From the IMG/VR virus record IMGVR_UViG_2579778919_000006, positions 1 to 42,066 of that record: 42,066 bases of DNA; one strand, 5' to 3'. The DNA comes from a virus (taxonomy: Duplodnaviria; Heunggongvirae; Uroviricota; Caudoviricetes). This document shows, piece by piece, positions 27,216 through 32,822 of the stretch. The stretch's first letter is position 1; every line of letters begins with the position of its first letter. The notes below the pieces were generated by a model that was not told the origin of the DNA, ran no database searches, and saw nothing but the letters and a program-made list of their open reading frames with translations. A program made the position numbers and the translations under genes.

Positions 27216-27464
27216 TTAGTTATCCTGTGGTGGCGCGGTGATGTAGCCCTTCTTTAGGGCCTTCTCGTATGCCTTGGTCTGGCGTCTTTTGAAGTAAAGG
27301 TTGGTCAGGTATGTGGCGATGCCGATAAGAAATCCGCCAATCACTGCAACCTTGTTCCAGTCGAGGTCGTGCAACCATTGCAAAATGCCGCCTCCACAAA
27401 TAAGACTGCCGGACACGCAATACGAGACTGCGGATGCAATTTTGTCAGGCATATATCGGATCAT
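27216..27464 (-). CDS. class II holin (pinholin-like) with dual-start motif
   Basis: GAGGAG Shine-Dalgarno before MIRYM; two transmembrane segments; ILQWL...YLTNLYFK resembles the phage 21 S protein as I recall it. Confidence 0.75.
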   Translation of the reverse strand: MIRYMPDKIASAVSYCVSGSLICGGGILQWLHDLDWNKVAVIGGFLIGIATYLTNLYFKRRQTKAYEKALKKGYITAPPQDN

Positions 27465-27563
27465 CTCTATCTCCTCGCGTAATGGCGGGAGCTGTGTGTA
27501 AGGGGTCAGGCCCTCGGGACGATTTAACAAGCAGTCATGTCGATGATGGTTCCCGGAGCCTGA

Positions 27564-27594
27564 AATAAAAAAAGCCCGCTTTTGATAGCGGGCT
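27564..27594 (-). terminator. intrinsic terminator in the late leader
   Basis: 7-bp stem agcccgc/gcgggct followed on the minus strand by a T-run. Confidence 0.6.
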
Positions 27595-27743
27595 AATGAG
27601 TTGACTATTTGTAAGGTAGGTGTGAGTAAGACTTATGCTCAGAGGTGAAGCTGTATCGGCTGATTCACTATCGGTCCAGGAGAACCACCGGGCATTCAGT
27701 TACTTCCCACAACTCAAAGCGTAGCAGCAGTTTGCAAAACCAT

Positions 27744-27771
27744 AAAAAAAGGCCTGCGTTTAATGGCAGGC
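27744..27771 (-). terminator. intrinsic terminator in the late leader
   Basis: 6-bp stem gcctgc/gcaggc followed on the minus strand by T7. Confidence 0.55.
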
Positions 27772-27988
27772 TCTCAAGGAATTTGAAACTTGTATTGTAG
27801 TTGTCATGGTGCCGGGTGCCTCCCGGTGACTCTACTCCAGCCAGCAAAGTCGCGCGCATACCTGCAGATAGCAGTTGGCTGGAACGCCCTTTCGCTTAGA
27901 AAGGATTCACCACAGAAATAAATTACGCCGAACTTATTCCTGCAGTCAATGAGATTAGCCATTGCTTCCTGATGGTTGTCTTACAAAT

Positions 27989-28011
27989 GAAAAAACCTCG
28001 CCGAAGCGAGG
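27989..28011 (-). terminator. intrinsic terminator in the late leader
   Basis: 6-bp stem cctcgc-cgaa-gcgagg followed on the minus strand by T6. Confidence 0.55.
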
Positions 28012-28208
28012 CTATTTGAATTTGAGGCACCTCACCCAACAAACCACCCGAGGTTAACTGGATTTTAACGAGATGCTTTTGGATGAGCGCTGAACCCAAA
28101 GGTCAGCATTTTCACACAGCAATTTTGCAAAAAGCAGCGCCCATTCAAAACTAGGTCGCTTTTCAGTCACTCCGGGGACCCCATCATCGCAGACCGAAAA
28201 GCTTAAAC

Positions 28209-28283
<75 letters not shown>

Positions 28284-28286
28284 ATA

Positions 28287-28362
<76 letters not shown>

Positions 28363-28364
28363 AG

Positions 28365-28438
28365 TGGTCCGCCACCGGAGCCTCGAACCCCGTACCACAA
28401 CACCTGGGTTGCCGCTCTTCCCGATGAGCTAGTGGCGG
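28365..28438 (-). tRNA. tRNA-like element, anticodon unresolved (possible degenerate tRNA)
   Basis: acceptor, D and T arms fold (T-loop TTCGAGG, 3' ACCA) but the best anticodon-arm pairing GCAAC/GTTGT leaves a 6-nt loop. Confidence 0.45.
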
Positions 28439-28440
28439 TC

Positions 28441-28517
28441 TGGTGGCCCTTGCTGGACTTGAACCAGCGACCGGGCGATTATGAGTCGCACGCTCTAACC
28501 AACTGAGCTAAAGGGCC
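28441..28517 (-). tRNA. tRNA with CAU anticodon (Met or Ile2-lysidine type)
   Basis: reverse complement GGCCCTTTAGCTCAGTTGGTTAGAGC...; anticodon loop CTCATAA; T-arm GGTTCAAGTCC; 3' CCA. Confidence 0.75.
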
Positions 28518-28642: not shown

Positions 28643-29593
28643 ATGATTTTTATTAAAAACGGCAATAGCTTTGATCGCATTAATGACTGGACAGAAATTC
28701 AAGCTCGGGAAAGCTATCATTCCAGGCTGGAACTGACCGATCAACAATTATCCGATGTTTTTGGTTATTATGATGACCTCCCGGAAGAAATCCCGTGTGG
28801 CAAGTCGAGCTGTCGAACAGGCCATAAAAAAGGGTTTCTTGTTCTTACTGAGGATGGTCTGGAGACGAACCTGGGTCACGTTTGCGGTACAAAAGTCTTC
28901 GGTATAGCATTTGAAAACCTAGCCACTGACCTCGAGAAAAAGGCAAATTTCCACAGATATCTAACAGCCCTCAAGGAAGCCAAGAAAAATATTTTTCTCC
29001 ATTACCAAGCAAAAGCCAAAATCGAAGCCAGTGAACCATCATTAGAATGGGTCGCACATAAAATTTTAGATTTAAGAGATTCTAAAGTAGTTGGCCGAGC
29101 CGGGAGTCAAGCTTTGAAACGTATGGCTGCTTTAGGAGATGGAAAAGTTTTACTTCCCAGAAGGAAAACCAAGGAAGAAATGCAGTTGTCGAATGTTATG
29201 TCTCAAAAACCTTCCGATAACGAAGATGAAAATGCTGAGGATAATGTAAAACCACAATTCATCGACGAAGTAATTGGCATTGTTCGTAATCCTGAATGCC
29301 TCCTCAACGATTATAACATAGCGCTAATCTTCGAAAGAGATATTCGCCTTGTGCTGGAAGAACTCAATAATTGCAATCCTGACGATATTCCTGAGAAGAA
29401 GGTCATGTCATTAGGATTAAAAGTTTCCAGGCTGAATGAAAGATTTCAATTCCTTCAGGATCGTTTTGAGAAAGCATGTATATATCTCACAAAGGAAAAC
29501 TTTAAACCTTTAAATCATCAACTACATTTGAAAAAATCAATTAGCAATAAAGATAAGGCCCTTTTCAGTTCTTTCGTTAACTCGCTGCCATAA
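28643..29593 (+). CDS. hypothetical 316-aa protein, AT-rich cargo gene antisense in the late leader
   Basis: ATG-initiated ORF, by eye clearly more A+T-rich than the flanks; Lys/Glu-rich helical protein with a Cys/His cluster (PCGKSSCRTGH...HVCG); hairpin terminator at its 3' end. Confidence 0.5.
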   Translation: MIFIKNGNSFDRINDWTEIQARESYHSRLELTDQQLSDVFGYYDDLPEEIPCGKSSCRTGHKKGFLVLTEDGLETNLGHVCGTKVFGIAFENLATDLEKKANFHRYLTALKEAKKNIFLHYQAKAKIEASEPSLEWVAHKILDLRDSKVVGRAGSQALKRMAALGDGKVLLPRRKTKEEMQLSNVMSQKPSDNEDENAEDNVKPQFIDEVIGIVRNPECLLNDYNIALIFERDIRLVLEELNNCNPDDIPEKKVMSLGLKVSRLNERFQFLQDRFEKACIYLTKENFKPLNHQLHLKKSISNKDKALFSSFVNSLP

Positions 29594-29619
29594 AAAAGCC
29601 CCGCAAGGGGCTTATTGTT
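29592..29619. terminator. bidirectional hairpin terminator
   Basis: stem agcccc-gcaa-ggggct; strong T-run on the minus strand (candidate tR'), weaker T-rich tail on the plus strand. Confidence 0.6.
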
Positions 29620-29701
29620 GAAATCTTTCAGGCGTTACTCCGCATGATTAGAAGCATACACGACAACTTCGGACAAAATCAAGCCTTATGTCGTAATAAT
29701 G

Positions 29702-30538
29702 CTAAATTTCGTCACCTTCTTCGCCTAAACTGGTTGCAGATTGAAATTCTCTTGCGGCGTTTCCCTCCTCCTGCTGACAAATGCTTACCAGCGCCTCAAG
29801 AAACGGTTTCCAGTTGCGAGTCCATGTTCTGACGTGCAGATCCGGAACGCGCTTCAGTATCACTTTATAGGCTGCGGTAGACGGCACCGCAGAAAATCCA
29901 TTTCCGCTGCAGCGCTCGCAGGTTTTAAACACCGGCGCGCCGCGCTCGCTTGTGGCCTTGCGGTCTAGAACCTCGCCTTTACCGCCACAGCGACAACGGG
30001 CGCTTATCGTTCCCTTGCCATCACAGGCATCACAAACTGCTGGCACAATCTCCGTGACCTCTGTCCATTTCTCCCAGTCTGACGGGCGAACAGCACGGGA
30101 GCGGCTGGCCCAGTATGGAGCTTTACCCCATGGGTACGAAACCTTGCGGGTAATCTGTTCGCGGGTTGTTCGTCCGGTACCACTGCAGCTGTGACACGTC
30201 ACGCTTGTAGCCGCCGAACGTGAATAATCAGCAAAGGCAAATTGTGCCAACATCTGCATGCACCATCCGAACTGCCCACCAGCTGCTTTGCGAACATTCT
30301 TCGGTGCGACATCCATCGCATATCGCGCCAGCGCCTGAACTGCGAGCTGTTCATCCGTTTTGCTGATTCCCGCTTTACCGAAGAACGCCGCCAGTCCGAA
30401 GCGCGCACGGCTGCTGGTGGTGCCAATTGCCGCCATTACATCTGTTCCTGTAAGGCGGTCCGGAGAGGTTCCTTTCACGTCGTCGCTGATGTGCACACCC
30501 TGAGGGCTAAAGTGTTTTAGTGATGCTTCCAACTTCAT
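29702..30538 (-). CDS. putative late-gene antiterminator (Q-position protein) with four CxxCxGxG zinc-finger repeats
   Basis: position between replication genes and the late/lysis region; CHSCSGTG, CDACDGKG, CRCGGKG, CERCSGNG repeats; start re-set from GTG to ATG with ATGA coupling to the upstream ORF; family assignment uncertain. Confidence 0.45.
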   Translation of the reverse strand: MKLEASLKHFSPQGVHISDDVKGTSPDRLTGTDVMAAIGTTSSRARFGLAAFFGKAGISKTDEQLAVQALARYAMDVAPKNVRKAAGGQFGWCMQMLAQFAFADYSRSAATSVTCHSCSGTGRTTREQITRKVSYPWGKAPYWASRSRAVRPSDWEKWTEVTEIVPAVCDACDGKGTISARCRCGGKGEVLDRKATSERGAPVFKTCERCSGNGFSAVPSTAAYKVILKRVPDLHVRTWTRNWKPFLEALVSICQQEEGNAAREFQSATSLGEEGDEI

Positions 30539-30846
30539 TGAATGGTTTCCCACTTTTCAGCAGTGCCAAACCAGCCAGGGTGCGCCCACTGGACATCAGT
30601 CACTTTATCGCCGTTACCCCACAGCGTCAGAACACGCATAGCAACGTAGTGCATAAGGATTTTTTCATGCTCTCGCCACTCATCATCAGGAGTGTCTTCA
30701 ACAAATTCAGCGATGGCGTCAGCAATAAGACCGAAACACTCAGGAAAATCACTATGACCGATTGCGATGTCTTTTGCCGTTTCCTGAAGCTCCATAAAAC
30801 GCTGCTTGGTAAAGAGATACGACATTTCTCTAATTAGGCGATCCAT
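30535..30846 (-). CDS. hypothetical protein
   Basis: about 103 aa from the ATG for MDRLIREM; coupled between primase-helicase and the Q-like gene. Confidence 0.4.
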   Translation of the reverse strand: MDRLIREMSYLFTKQRFMELQETAKDIAIGHSDFPECFGLIADAIAEFVEDTPDDEWREHEKILMHYVAMRVLTLWGNGDKVTDVQWAHPGWFGTAEKWETIQ

Positions 30847-30847
30847 T

Positions 30848-32719
30848 TTAATACCTCGTTGCGTTGGTGGCTTCCCACTCAATATCAAGTTCACTTTGCT
30901 GTTTGCCGGCCAAGTAATTGAAGGGCCCTTTATCACCCTCGATAAACTGGTGTGAGCGGGAATCAAAGTTAGCCCCTATGTCTCCGATCCAGCCTTCCCC
31001 TTCACGTTGTTTCAACAGGCGGATCATCGAAGCGGGCATTTGGATAGCAGTCTGTTCGTCCTTATCAAGGCTCTCATACCCCATTCTTTCAGCTTTGCGC
31101 TGCGCCAGTTCGCGCGGGATATTACGCCAGACCGCCATAACGTTGTCGGGCATGTCAGTTAAAGCGCCAGTGCCTTTAACATCCATTTTCCCTGTTGGTG
31201 CAGCTTCGTTTGTTTTTCTGGCATGCGTTACCAGCAGAACATGGCAGTTGTGCTCGTTTTTAAAGTCGCAGAGGGTATCGATAAATTCTTTTTGTCCACC
31301 GTAGTCCTCCTCATCGAGTCCACATTTTGCCAAGTTGTCGATAACGAAAAGATCGATTCCATAGCGGCGTCTGGCATAGGCAAATATTTCCAACAGTCGA
31401 TCGGCCTTGGCTGTTCCGGTGAGTTTGAACACCCAAAGACGATCAGAAAACCACTCGTTAGTCATGATGATTTCAGTACGTTCTGGGTTTTTTCTACAAA
31501 TGGTTTGCCGGGTAAGACGAGCCAACATTTTCCCAGGCTTAAGCTCCAGCGAGGCAATGCATACCCGGACTCCCTGGCTCATGGCATTGACGGCGATATG
31601 TCCCACCAGCTCGGTTTTTCCGTGGCCGTTTACTCCGTTAACCAGCGTCAGCTCTCCGGCGCGGAATTTGAAATTACTGTTCAGCGAATCCCACGGGCTG
31701 GAAAATAATCCAACATCTCGATGCTCGAATGCATCCAGTGTTTCCTGAAGGAGATCACCCGCAGAGCAGAGTTCATCAGGGTCGAAGAATTTAGCGGTCC
31801 CCAAGTAGTGCCAGATTTCATCCTCGCTCATCCCGGAGGTCAGACATTCATTGATATCTTTGTGCGGCAGCTCTACCAGGCGGCAACGATGCTCCCCCAG
31901 GCGACGAGCAATTTCTTTTGCGGCTTCGCGCCCTACATCATCGTTATCGAGGCTTAACCAAATTTCTTCGAATCGGTCGAGGTTGTGATACTCGTATTCG
32001 ATCCATTGCTGTTTGGCCCCTTTTCCACCGCCGAACGGTACCGATAGAGCACTGATACCGAATTGCGAGTAGGTCATACAGTCAATCTCTCCTTCGCAAA
32101 GCACAACAGCGCGAGCTTTCGCGTCCATAGCCTGCCAGCCAAACAGACATGGCTCGCAATCAGCTTCAGCCATGATCAACTTTTTGCCATTTGGTCGTTC
32201 AGTGCCGATTCGCTTTACCTGCAAAAGCTCACCGTTGCGAAGATACGGAAACGCCACTGCCGGAATTTCGCGGTTTTCATCGTGGTACCAGACGACTGCG
32301 TCCGAAACACGGAATTGATCAGCTGTCTCTCGGGTGATGCCACGGGAAGAGAGGTAGTCGTAGCAATGGCTCGCCTTTTTAACGCCTTTTTTGGTTGGCC
32401 GTGAGAAGGTTTTTTTCTTCGCCTCGAAGTGGTTATCGTCGTCCTTCAGCCCAAGGAACTCTTTCGCTTCCCGCATAGCGTCGTGCAGCTGGCAGTTACG
32501 CACCAGCACCCAAAGATCAAGCAGGTCTCCGCTGTCGCCGCTTGCAAAATCTGCCCAAGTCTTCTTACCACCGAGATTAATTTTCAGGCTCTTACCGGCA
32601 TCACCATTGGTATTACCAGCGCACCACTCCTTGCCCTCGAGGTGTCCTCGTGGAAGCAGGTATTTCGCAACTCTTTCGGCGTTGTCCCACAATTTTTCAG
32701 ATAACTCAGCAGGGGTCAT
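30848..32719 (-). CDS. bifunctional DNA primase / DnaB-like helicase
   Basis: Toprim-like central region (LCEGEIDCMTY, DNDDVGREAA) and C-terminal P-loop NTPase (GVNGHGKT, LFVIDNL); start re-set to the ATG with GGAG Shine-Dalgarno. Confidence 0.8.
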   Translation of the reverse strand: MTPAELSEKLWDNAERVAKYLLPRGHLEGKEWCAGNTNGDAGKSLKINLGGKKTWADFASGDSGDLLDLWVLVRNCQLHDAMREAKEFLGLKDDDNHFEAKKKTFSRPTKKGVKKASHCYDYLSSRGITRETADQFRVSDAVVWYHDENREIPAVAFPYLRNGELLQVKRIGTERPNGKKLIMAEADCEPCLFGWQAMDAKARAVVLCEGEIDCMTYSQFGISALSVPFGGGKGAKQQWIEYEYHNLDRFEEIWLSLDNDDVGREAAKEIARRLGEHRCRLVELPHKDINECLTSGMSEDEIWHYLGTAKFFDPDELCSAGDLLQETLDAFEHRDVGLFSSPWDSLNSNFKFRAGELTLVNGVNGHGKTELVGHIAVNAMSQGVRVCIASLELKPGKMLARLTRQTICRKNPERTEIIMTNEWFSDRLWVFKLTGTAKADRLLEIFAYARRRYGIDLFVIDNLAKCGLDEEDYGGQKEFIDTLCDFKNEHNCHVLLVTHARKTNEAAPTGKMDVKGTGALTDMPDNVMAVWRNIPRELAQRKAERMGYESLDKDEQTAIQMPASMIRLLKQREGEGWIGDIGANFDSRSHQFIEGDKGPFNYLAGKQQSELDIEWEATNATRY

Positions 32720-32822
32720 CACACACTCCGTAAATCGAATTTTATAAAGCACATAGTCACGAATTCCTCACGCAAAAAGCCGCGGTTATAGCCAGCAACC
32801 AGTAGACGTTTGAGGATTCTTT

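Follow-up and report, generated by a model that had tools for sequence, protein, structure and literature searches.

The stretch analysed here, called the window, comprises the 42,066 nucleotides (nt) of the IMG/VR virus record IMGVR_UViG_2579778919_000006, which is assigned to the Caudoviricetes. One of its minus-strand open reading frames (ORFs) encodes a 278-residue protein and lies after the replication genes and ahead of the tRNA genes and the holin, lysozyme, Rz and structural genes, all of which are on the same strand. Just downstream of this ORF lie a candidate late promoter (pR'), a putative Q-binding element (QBE), a putative pause element and an intrinsic-terminator-like hairpin (tR') (Table 1). 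Taken together, the evidence makes it highly probable that the ORF is the late-gene antiterminator of a prophage, a Q protein of the Q-lambda family and the phi80 subtype, and that the DNA immediately downstream is its cognate loading and test site.

Table 1. Features of the Q gene, the DNA downstream of it and the neighbouring late region (window coordinates)
Feature	Position	Strand	Remarks
Q gene	29702..30538	minus	278-aa late-gene antiterminator, Q-lambda family, phi80 subtype; basis PF03589, lambda Q match, PHROG 127, AlphaFold2 fold
Codons 1-60, homologue of lambda Q N-terminal 'nozzle' segment	30359..30538	minus	GTDVMAA.G motif and invariant G39; aligned to lambda Q 1-60
Cys motif K1, C115HSCSGTG	30173..30196	minus	C115, C118, G120 invariant
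Insertion, residues 123-168, not in lambda Q	30035..30172	minus	predicted long beta-hairpin, strands 123-134 and 157-168, tip YPWGKAPYW..SRAVRPSDWEKW
Cys motif K2, C169DACDGKG	30011..30034	minus	C169, C172, G174 invariant
K3 (C182RCGGKG), 18-residue interior and K4 (C207ERCSGNG)	29897..29995	minus	counterpart of lambda zinc-ribbon arm (lambda residues 114-152) by phmmer and arm model; R183 invariant
Helix-turn-helix of Q body, residues ~220-250	29789..29881	minus	helices 220-228 and 236 onward; lambda Q body homology
pR' -35, TTGATT	29677..29682	minus	kept in 60 class-A loci (one TTGCTT); TTGACT, as in lambda, in 29 class-B loci
Putative QBE, TTGTCCGAAGTTG	29664..29676	minus	lambda/phi80 register; most conserved non-coding stretch; class A/B covariation with helix-turn-helix
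pR' -10, TATGCT	29653..29658	minus	18-nt spacer; T-A-n-n-n-T across 89 loci
Putative sigma-dependent pause element, AATCAT (29649-29644) and GCGG	29640..29649	minus	nAnnnT at constant offset from -35
tR', AAGCCCC-TTGC-GGGGCTT, then T-run	29590..29613	minus	stem-loop 29613-29596, 7 pairs (5 G-C), 4-nt loop
Convergent 316-aa ORF	28643-29593	plus	stops 3 nt from tR' hairpin; PHROG 7003 (unknown function)
Downstream late region	27216..28517	minus	three tRNA genes, STnc100-like RNA, three more terminators, holin gene opening the late operon
Fourth 'tRNA-???'	28365-28438	minus	ARAGORN, 2-nt anticodon; between Met/Ile-CAT and Thr-TGT genes
Further intrinsic-terminator-like sites between tR' and holin start	28013-27994, 27771-27752, 27594-27573	minus	
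STnc100 (Rfam small RNA) match	27740-27946	minus	53.1 bits, gathering score 47; ends in 27771-27752 terminator, between tRNA cluster and holin
Holin gene	27530-27216	minus	

Family and fold of the Q protein

Profile, sequence and structure comparisons all place the protein in one family. In a Pfam scan of the 278 residues, PF03589 (Antitermination protein Q) was matched with 180.1 bits (cut-off 26.7, E = 8.2e-54) in two stretches, the best of which (residues 176-262) spans the whole profile. PF03589 represents the Q-lambda family according to the mapping of Q families to Pfam by Yin et al. 2022 (PMC9388147), and the same scan gave no match at E<=1 to the Q21 (PF06530) or Q82 (PF06323) profiles. 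With phmmer, lambda Q (7UBM/7UBN, 4MO1) is the best sequence match in the PDB (E = 2.8e-39 for 7UBM_Q); residues 1-125 align with lambda 1-128 and residues 179-262 with lambda 115-199, and because of this two-block alignment the protein can be described as lambda Q with about 54 extra residues at the zinc ribbon. PHROG 127, named 'anti-termination protein Q-like', matches the protein at E = 4e-101. Furthermore, an AlphaFold2 model built from 144 sequences, with a predicted local distance difference test score (pLDDT) of 84.6, has as its top Foldseek match 7UBN_Q, which is lambda Q in the engaged loading complex (E = 4.5e-12, target-normalised template-modelling (TM) score 0.78, probability 1.00).

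Existing annotation agrees with this assignment. The ATG taken as the start is the RefSeq start in a 98% identical E. coli prophage, proteins of 98% identity carry the NCBI name 'antitermination protein (Q)', and many homologues are named 'antitermination protein Q' with precomputed matches to both PF03589 and PF00684. A further domain, PF27659, is precomputed on many homologues and was not reported for the window protein in our Pfam scan. The sequence-only reading of this stretch had seen a protein in the antiterminator position that it could not place in a known Q family; the protein can in fact be placed, in the Q-lambda family and within it in the phi80-Q subtype. Matches to an unrelated family, coupled with a different late activator elsewhere, were not found.

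The structure of lambda Q gives the frame in which the window protein can be read. Lambda Q consists of a four-helix body with a helix-turn-helix (HTH) and a zinc-ribbon 'arm' (residues 114-152); on the 13-bp lambda QBE the body reads positions 1-4 and the arm positions 11-13, while the tip of the arm contacts sigma region 4 and the ribbon contacts the beta' zinc-binding domain (PMC9388147). Residues 1-44 of lambda Q refold together with NusA into a nozzle at the RNA-exit channel (PMC9388147), and by homology a nozzle role is predicted for residues 1-60 here. A natural chimeric Q is encoded in E. coli 90-3040 (NZ_CP027459; locus L005, 2363-3193), in which residues 1-52, the part that forms the nozzle, are identical to lambda Q and the remainder is a long-arm Q of the window type. 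It suggests that the N-terminal module is exchangeable among subtypes.

Cysteine motifs and predicted architecture of the arm

The most conspicuous feature of the protein is a series of four cysteine-glycine motifs, here called K1 to K4, which had been described as four CxxCxGxG repeats. Three of them (K1, K2 and K4) have exactly this form, whereas K3 is CxCxGxG and is shorter by one residue. Conservation was followed in 232 full-length homologues collected by two protein searches: K1 and K2 are present in every one and K3 in all but one, each time in the CxC form. All four motifs are recognised by the search pattern in 214 homologues, and the other 18 deviate at one motif, nearly always K4, the two cysteines of which are invariant in the 144-sequence alignment despite these deviations. 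Retention across so many full-length proteins means that the motifs are no chance occurrence. Spacing is 34 to 58 residues between K1 and K2, 13 between K2 and K3, and 25-26 between K3 and K4. Of 59 tblastn matches to the Q-lambda family, sampled at even spacing from phage records, about 33 are long forms; the other 26 have the length of lambda Q.

Modelling of the arm on its own (residues 106-220, pLDDT 74) and comparison with the PDB by Foldseek again returned the lambda Q arm as the top match, over 38-43 residues at 2.3-3.7 Å and 39-46% identity. In both this and the full-length model, a long beta-hairpin (123-134, 157-168) connects K1 to K2, and K3 to K4 form a strand-helix-strand unit as in the lambda arm, the interior of which has the 18 residues found in lambda. 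In view of the superposition, the predicted hairpin, and the interior length and spacing of K3 and K4, the four motifs can be read as two tandem zinc ribbons, in which K1 and K2 would close an extra, long beta-hairpin and K3 and K4 would correspond to the lambda arm.

Two other accounts of the motifs have to be considered. The sequence-only reading had seen in them the signature of a DnaJ-type zinc finger, and a protein of that chaperone-like, cysteine-rich kind could merely sit at the Q position. At the level of motifs the likeness is real. Like the DnaJ/Hsp40 cysteine-rich domain (PF00684, DnaJ_CXXCXGXG), the protein has repeated CxxCxGxG motifs and eight cysteines expected to hold two zinc ions; PF00684 is matched at E = 6.9e-6, is among the precomputed domains of many homologues, and is accompanied by weak matches to NCBIfam DnaJ models. 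However, the PF00684 match of 26.7 bits does not reach the gathering cut-off of 32.7, the NCBIfam matches reach about 20 bits where the cut-offs exceed 300 (21.7 against 377.2 for TIGR02349), and no J domain was found at E<=1 in the Pfam scan of the protein. The alignment to lambda Q, moreover, spans the whole protein. Comparison of folds points the same way: DnaJA2 matches the full AlphaFold2 model only at E of about 3, and in superpositions on the arm model the DnaJA2 and DnaJA3 cysteine-rich domains give E>1, root-mean-square deviations of 9-16 Å and TM scores of at most 0.27. The V-shaped interleaved topology of DnaJ was not recovered, and the motif spacing in Q (54, 13, 25) is unlike that of DnaJ. 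The notion of a DnaJ protein is thus effectively refuted; what stands of it is a resemblance of motifs, and the motifs themselves belong to the zinc-ribbon arm of the Q-lambda family.

The second account keeps the Q assignment and pairs the motifs differently, with an interleaved, DnaJ-like zinc pair (K1 with K4, K2 with K3) and residues 123-206 as a single large insertion nested within a lambda-type ribbon. HMMER does also align the first lambda knuckle, together with an upstream RSAA..C, onto K1; K3 follows the end of K2 after only 5 residues; and DnaJA2 appears among the weak fold matches. Against this, the segment from K3 through its interior to K4 fits the lambda arm by sequence, by its 18-residue spacing and in three dimensions (about 40 residues at 2.3-3.7 Å), which implies that K3 and K4 are juxtaposed. 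A long hairpin like that of a classical ribbon is predicted between K1 and K2, and the K3-K4 spacing is fixed whereas the K1-K2 spacing varies. We therefore regard the interleaved pairing as unlikely and retain the tandem ribbons.

Putative promoter, Q-binding element and terminator downstream of Q

The hexamers TTGATT and TATGCT that had been proposed as a minus-strand promoter, about 18 nt apart, are present at 29682-29677 and 29658-29653 with a spacer of exactly 18 nt. Likewise, the strong minus-strand terminator described some 80-100 nt past the stop codon corresponds to a hairpin with a T-run that starts 89 nt beyond it. Seen from the window sequence alone, the promoter/terminator pair does not exceed chance, since the hexamers agree with consensus at only 8 of 12 positions and terminator-like sites across the region are as numerous as expected from shuffled sequence, and the case therefore rests on comparison. 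The comparison covered 89 loci anchored on the -35 hexamer, of which 80 are IMG/VR contigs, 8 are annotated prophages or phages and one is the window. Judged by conservation, the promoter/terminator pair is well above chance once these loci are compared. Conservation is highest, at 1.3-1.8 bits per position, over a stretch of 40 bp that runs from the -35 hexamer through a second, -10-like hexamer; the flanks are less conserved, with 0.6-0.9 bits in the last 80 nt of Q coding sequence and in the leader, and about 0.45 bits in the terminator.

Within this island the pattern of conservation is specific. In the -10 hexamer positions 1, 2 and 6 are invariant and the middle three vary, and in the second hexamer (AATCAT, AATCGT, GATTAT, CATCGT and others) only A2 and T6 are invariant. 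The second hexamer keeps a constant offset from the -35 hexamer in 87 of the 89 loci and shifts by 1 nt in either direction in the other two. Both hexamers are thus conserved only at positions recognised by sigma, the pattern expected of sigma region 2 elements. In lambda the corresponding pause element consists of AACGAT at +1 to +6 and then GGG, and the polymerase pauses at +16 (PMC4005639). Three other candidates were rejected. An alternative promoter, TTGTCC-18-TCTAAT, shows no conservation, and its -10 lacks A at position 2. If AATCAT were the primary -10, it would have neither a -35 at a usable spacing (11 or 21 nt) nor a TG upstream. A leader hexamer, AGTAAC (AATAAT in some loci), considered as the pause element likewise shows no conservation, and its distance from the Q site is 36 nt, compared with 26-29 nt in characterised phages.

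The position of the QBE was set by register. In each phage, the 13-mer that ends 14 nt ahead of the -10-like hexamer was compared, the lambda placement being deduced from the Q site annotated in phi80 and the register common to these phages: TTGAATAAAATTG in lambda, TTGAATAAAGTTG in P22, TTCAAAAAATATG in SfV, CGCGGAAAAACTG in phi80 (overlapping the Q site annotated in JX871397), TTGTCCGAAGTTG in the window and TTGCATAAAACTG in a second class of relatives (class B, below). All six end in TG, and their first halves differ between phages. The shared TG fits a contact made by conserved residues of the arm, where R183, beside the K3 cysteines, is invariant; the downstream TG would then be read by the zinc-ribbon arm and the upstream half by the HTH. 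The 14-nt distance from putative binding site to putative pause hexamer is the same in the window, lambda, P22, SfV and phi80. It is the core promoter that is displaced relative to the characterised phages, with a spacer of 18 instead of 17 nt and a 13-mer that begins at spacer position 1 instead of 3.

The upstream half-site divides the 89 loci into two classes, A (60 loci, spacer beginning TTGTCCGAA) and B (29 loci, spacer beginning TTGCATAA). Only eight columns of the Q protein (221, 225, 236, 237, 238, 240, 254 and 271) split these classes perfectly, and six of the eight lie within the HTH, with K225 in one class and R in the other, and VRTWT or QSSWS at residues 236-240, where the second helix begins. 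HTH residues and half-site variants covary, 60 loci against 29, with no exception, which fits recognition of the upstream half-site by the HTH.

Transcription from pR' is predicted to yield a leader RNA of roughly 53 nt, from about 29645 to about 29593, and the 57-nt putative leader that includes tR' folds with -17 kcal/mol (z = -2.3). A hairpin with a T-run was found in 82 of the 89 loci, 53-70 nt past the -10 hexamer in 74 of them and at 95 nt in 8, and these 82 hairpins comprise 41 distinct sequences. By megablast, the module occurs in 37 of 5,426 complete E. coli genomes; many of the alignments stop at query 1107-1110, which is window 29594-29591 and the end of the T-run, so that these alignments place a mosaic boundary directly after tR'. 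The annotated distance from pR' start to tR' in P22 is about 59 nt, and a short leader is therefore normal for this family. The lambda leader, known as 6S RNA, is much longer, at about 194 nt.

It might be asked whether the hairpin is instead the terminator of the convergent 316-aa gene, with the hexamers matching by chance and the true late promoter lying elsewhere. The stop codon of that ORF is 3 nt from the hairpin, the hexamers agree with consensus at 8 of 12 positions, and terminator-like sites are no commoner than in shuffled sequence. Yet the terminator is found in 82 of 89 loci and relatives of the convergent ORF in only 23 of 88, so the terminator goes with pR' and not with the convergent gene. 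In addition, the island from the promoter to the second hexamer is conserved above the adjoining Q coding sequence, the T-run lies on the minus-strand 3' side of the hairpin, and the layout is like the annotated pR'/tR' of P22 and phi80. This alternative is therefore very unlikely, although the tR' hairpin may serve both directions. A different proposal is that the short RNA from pR' to tR', made constitutively in lysogens, also acts as a regulatory small RNA like StxS of Stx phages. There is precedent in Stx phages, in which pR' is described as always active, is terminated just downstream in lysogeny and yields a short regulatory RNA as a by-product (PMC7547250); the predicted RNA of about 53 nt ends with a strong hairpin and a U-tail, and the leader is partly conserved inside class A. 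However, no Rfam family was found for the leader, the best matches having E of 0.5-0.9 and lying far under gathering scores, and leader conservation is low (0.7-0.9 bits). A regulatory role of this RNA thus seems quite improbable.

The proposed late-gene switch and its counterparts in other phages

By homology with lambda Q, from which we infer every step, the switch would work as follows. Sigma70 RNA polymerase would initiate at pR' (TTGATT-18-TATGCT), at about 29645, and sigma region 2 would recapture the polymerase at the -10-like AATCAT and cause a pause. Without Q, transcription would end at tR' and give the RNA of about 53 nt. Q made from the early rightward transcript would use its HTH to recognise the upstream half-site within the spacer (TTGTCCGAA) and its lambda-like zinc ribbon (K3-K4, with the invariant R183) to read the conserved TG about 10 bp downstream. 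Its N-terminal 60 residues would then refold, with the help of NusA, to form a nozzle at the RNA-exit channel. Modified in this way, the polymerase would ignore tR' and the three terminators beyond it and go on to transcribe the tRNAs, the holin and lysis genes and the structural operon of about 27 kb. A short pR'-to-tR' unit modified by an antiterminator, as had been suggested from the letters of the stretch, is supported by homology, the predicted fold, the position of the gene and the conservation pattern downstream.

Several points weigh against this account. The pR' hexamers match consensus at 8 of 12 positions, below the threshold of the promoter scan, which for that reason did not report the promoter. 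At the positions by which lambda Q contacts the flap-tip helix (C53, H56, L58), the window protein has F, A and I. The proposed pairing of K1 with K2 and of K3 with K4 is based on superposition statistics and spacing. The -10 hexamer is 3 nt from the pause hexamer, compared with 6 nt in characterised phages; the predicted start (about 29645) therefore lies inside the pause hexamer, and the RNA at the pause would fall short of that of lambda by about 3 nt. We know of no studied Q for which such a 3-nt geometry has been documented. Lambda uses a TTGACT-like element just upstream of its pause hexamer for repositioning sigma region 4, and a -35-like hexamer of this kind was looked for upstream of the pause element here and not found. 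The covariation of HTH and half-site could be explained by plain linkage, because only about 200 bp separate them. Finally, the transcription start, the pause, Q binding and readthrough are all predictions from comparison. What the analysis establishes directly is membership of the family, the predicted fold, the conservation of the motifs, and the way in which the putative promoter, binding site, pause hexamer and terminator are conserved.

The same geometry could indicate a rearranged loading site in this phi80-type branch. The core promoter would have moved 3 bp toward the pause hexamer, so that initiation would fall within the pause element and the RNA would be about 13 nt long at the pause. 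No -35-like site would be available to sigma region 4, and the extra K1-hairpin-K2 ribbon might take the place of that anchor by direct contact with sigma, RNA polymerase or NusA. The tip of this hairpin is the best-conserved part shared with phi80 Q. Such a mode, which we consider unlikely, would if true mean that a Q-lambda-type nozzle can be loaded by a distinct mechanism.

The surroundings of the switch are those of a late region. The annotated genes of the 98% identical prophage in E. coli MS 115-1 include those for holin, lysozyme and lysis protein, and the three further terminator-like sites ahead of the holin gene imply that late transcription needs processive antitermination well past tR'. 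The fourth tRNA-like stretch (28365-28438) has no Rfam tRNA match, is unannotated by RefSeq in the 98% identical prophage, and probably represents a decayed tRNA gene. Neither Pfam nor PADLOC gave a match for the convergent 316-aa ORF; its relatives occur in the same place and orientation beside different Q alleles, and since late transcription from pR' would run antisense across it, the ORF looks like a lysogen-expressed moron. Upstream of Q, a 103-aa ORF (PHROG 33270, unknown function) has a stop codon that overlaps the Q start as ATGA (30535-30540, minus strand), which suggests translational coupling. In place of lambda O/P-type replication genes, the window has a fused Toprim primase/DnaB-like helicase of 634 aa (30848-32752, minus strand).

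The element is very probably an ordinary late-gene switch of a lambdoid prophage, and its sole unusual feature is the shifted geometry of the -10 and pause elements. The results leave current understanding unchanged. They do fix the annotation of the switch (Q, pR', Q site, pause element, tR' and the terminators to override), remove a misleading 'DnaJ-like' label, and indicate that, within the Q-lambda family, arms with two zinc ribbons outnumber those with one. To our knowledge, the only solved structure in this family is that of the single-ribbon lambda protein. Furthermore, HTH variants and half-site variants (TTGTCCGAA and TTGCATAAA) occur as natural matched pairs among the 89 loci, and these pairs, like the shifted geometry, could be used directly to test rules of specificity and loading.

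Among known systems, the closest counterpart is phi80. Its Q (gp17; JX871397, 269 aa) belongs to the same family and has the same long arm, with motifs starting at 115, 169, 182 (CxC) and 207, and a K1-K2 insert (KVSYPWGKPPYWSKMSRAVRPSDWESWT) that shares the tip KVSYPWGK.PYW..SRAVRPSDWE.W. In phi80, as is predicted for the window, the Q site lies within the promoter spacer, and a terminator follows within about 85 nt. The two proteins are only about 40% identical overall, and the HTH residues and upstream half-sites differ (CGCGGAA in phi80, TTGTCCGAA in the window), as do the spacers (17 nt against 18) and the distance from the -10 to the pause hexamer (6 nt against 3). Guo and Roberts reportedly studied phi80 Q in 2004.

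SfV Q and the Q of Stx2c-converting phages (250 aa) are also members of the Q-lambda family with four cysteine motifs, and the doubled form is therefore common. They differ from the window protein in a shorter K1-K2 insert and in a third motif of the CxxC rather than the CxC form, and their pR' regions have the lambda layout, with a 17-nt spacer and AACGAT 6 nt past the -10. A study of pR' diversity in Stx phages (PMC6266700) contains nothing on the Q type of the window.

Lambda Q and P22 gp23 (PDB 4MO1, 7UBJ-7UBN) differ in architecture. They have 207 residues and one ribbon with two cysteine motifs, to which the window Q adds about 54 residues and two motifs; their pause hexamer is AACGAT, as in SfV, where the window has AATCAT; and the flap-tip-helix contacts and the TTGACT-like element upstream of the pause hexamer set lambda apart from the window. 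Common to lambda, P22 and the window are PF03589, the nozzle segment, the four-helix body with its HTH and the zinc-ribbon arm, as well as the order of QBE, pause element and terminator (putative elements in the window), with 14 nt from the end of the QBE to the pause hexamer.

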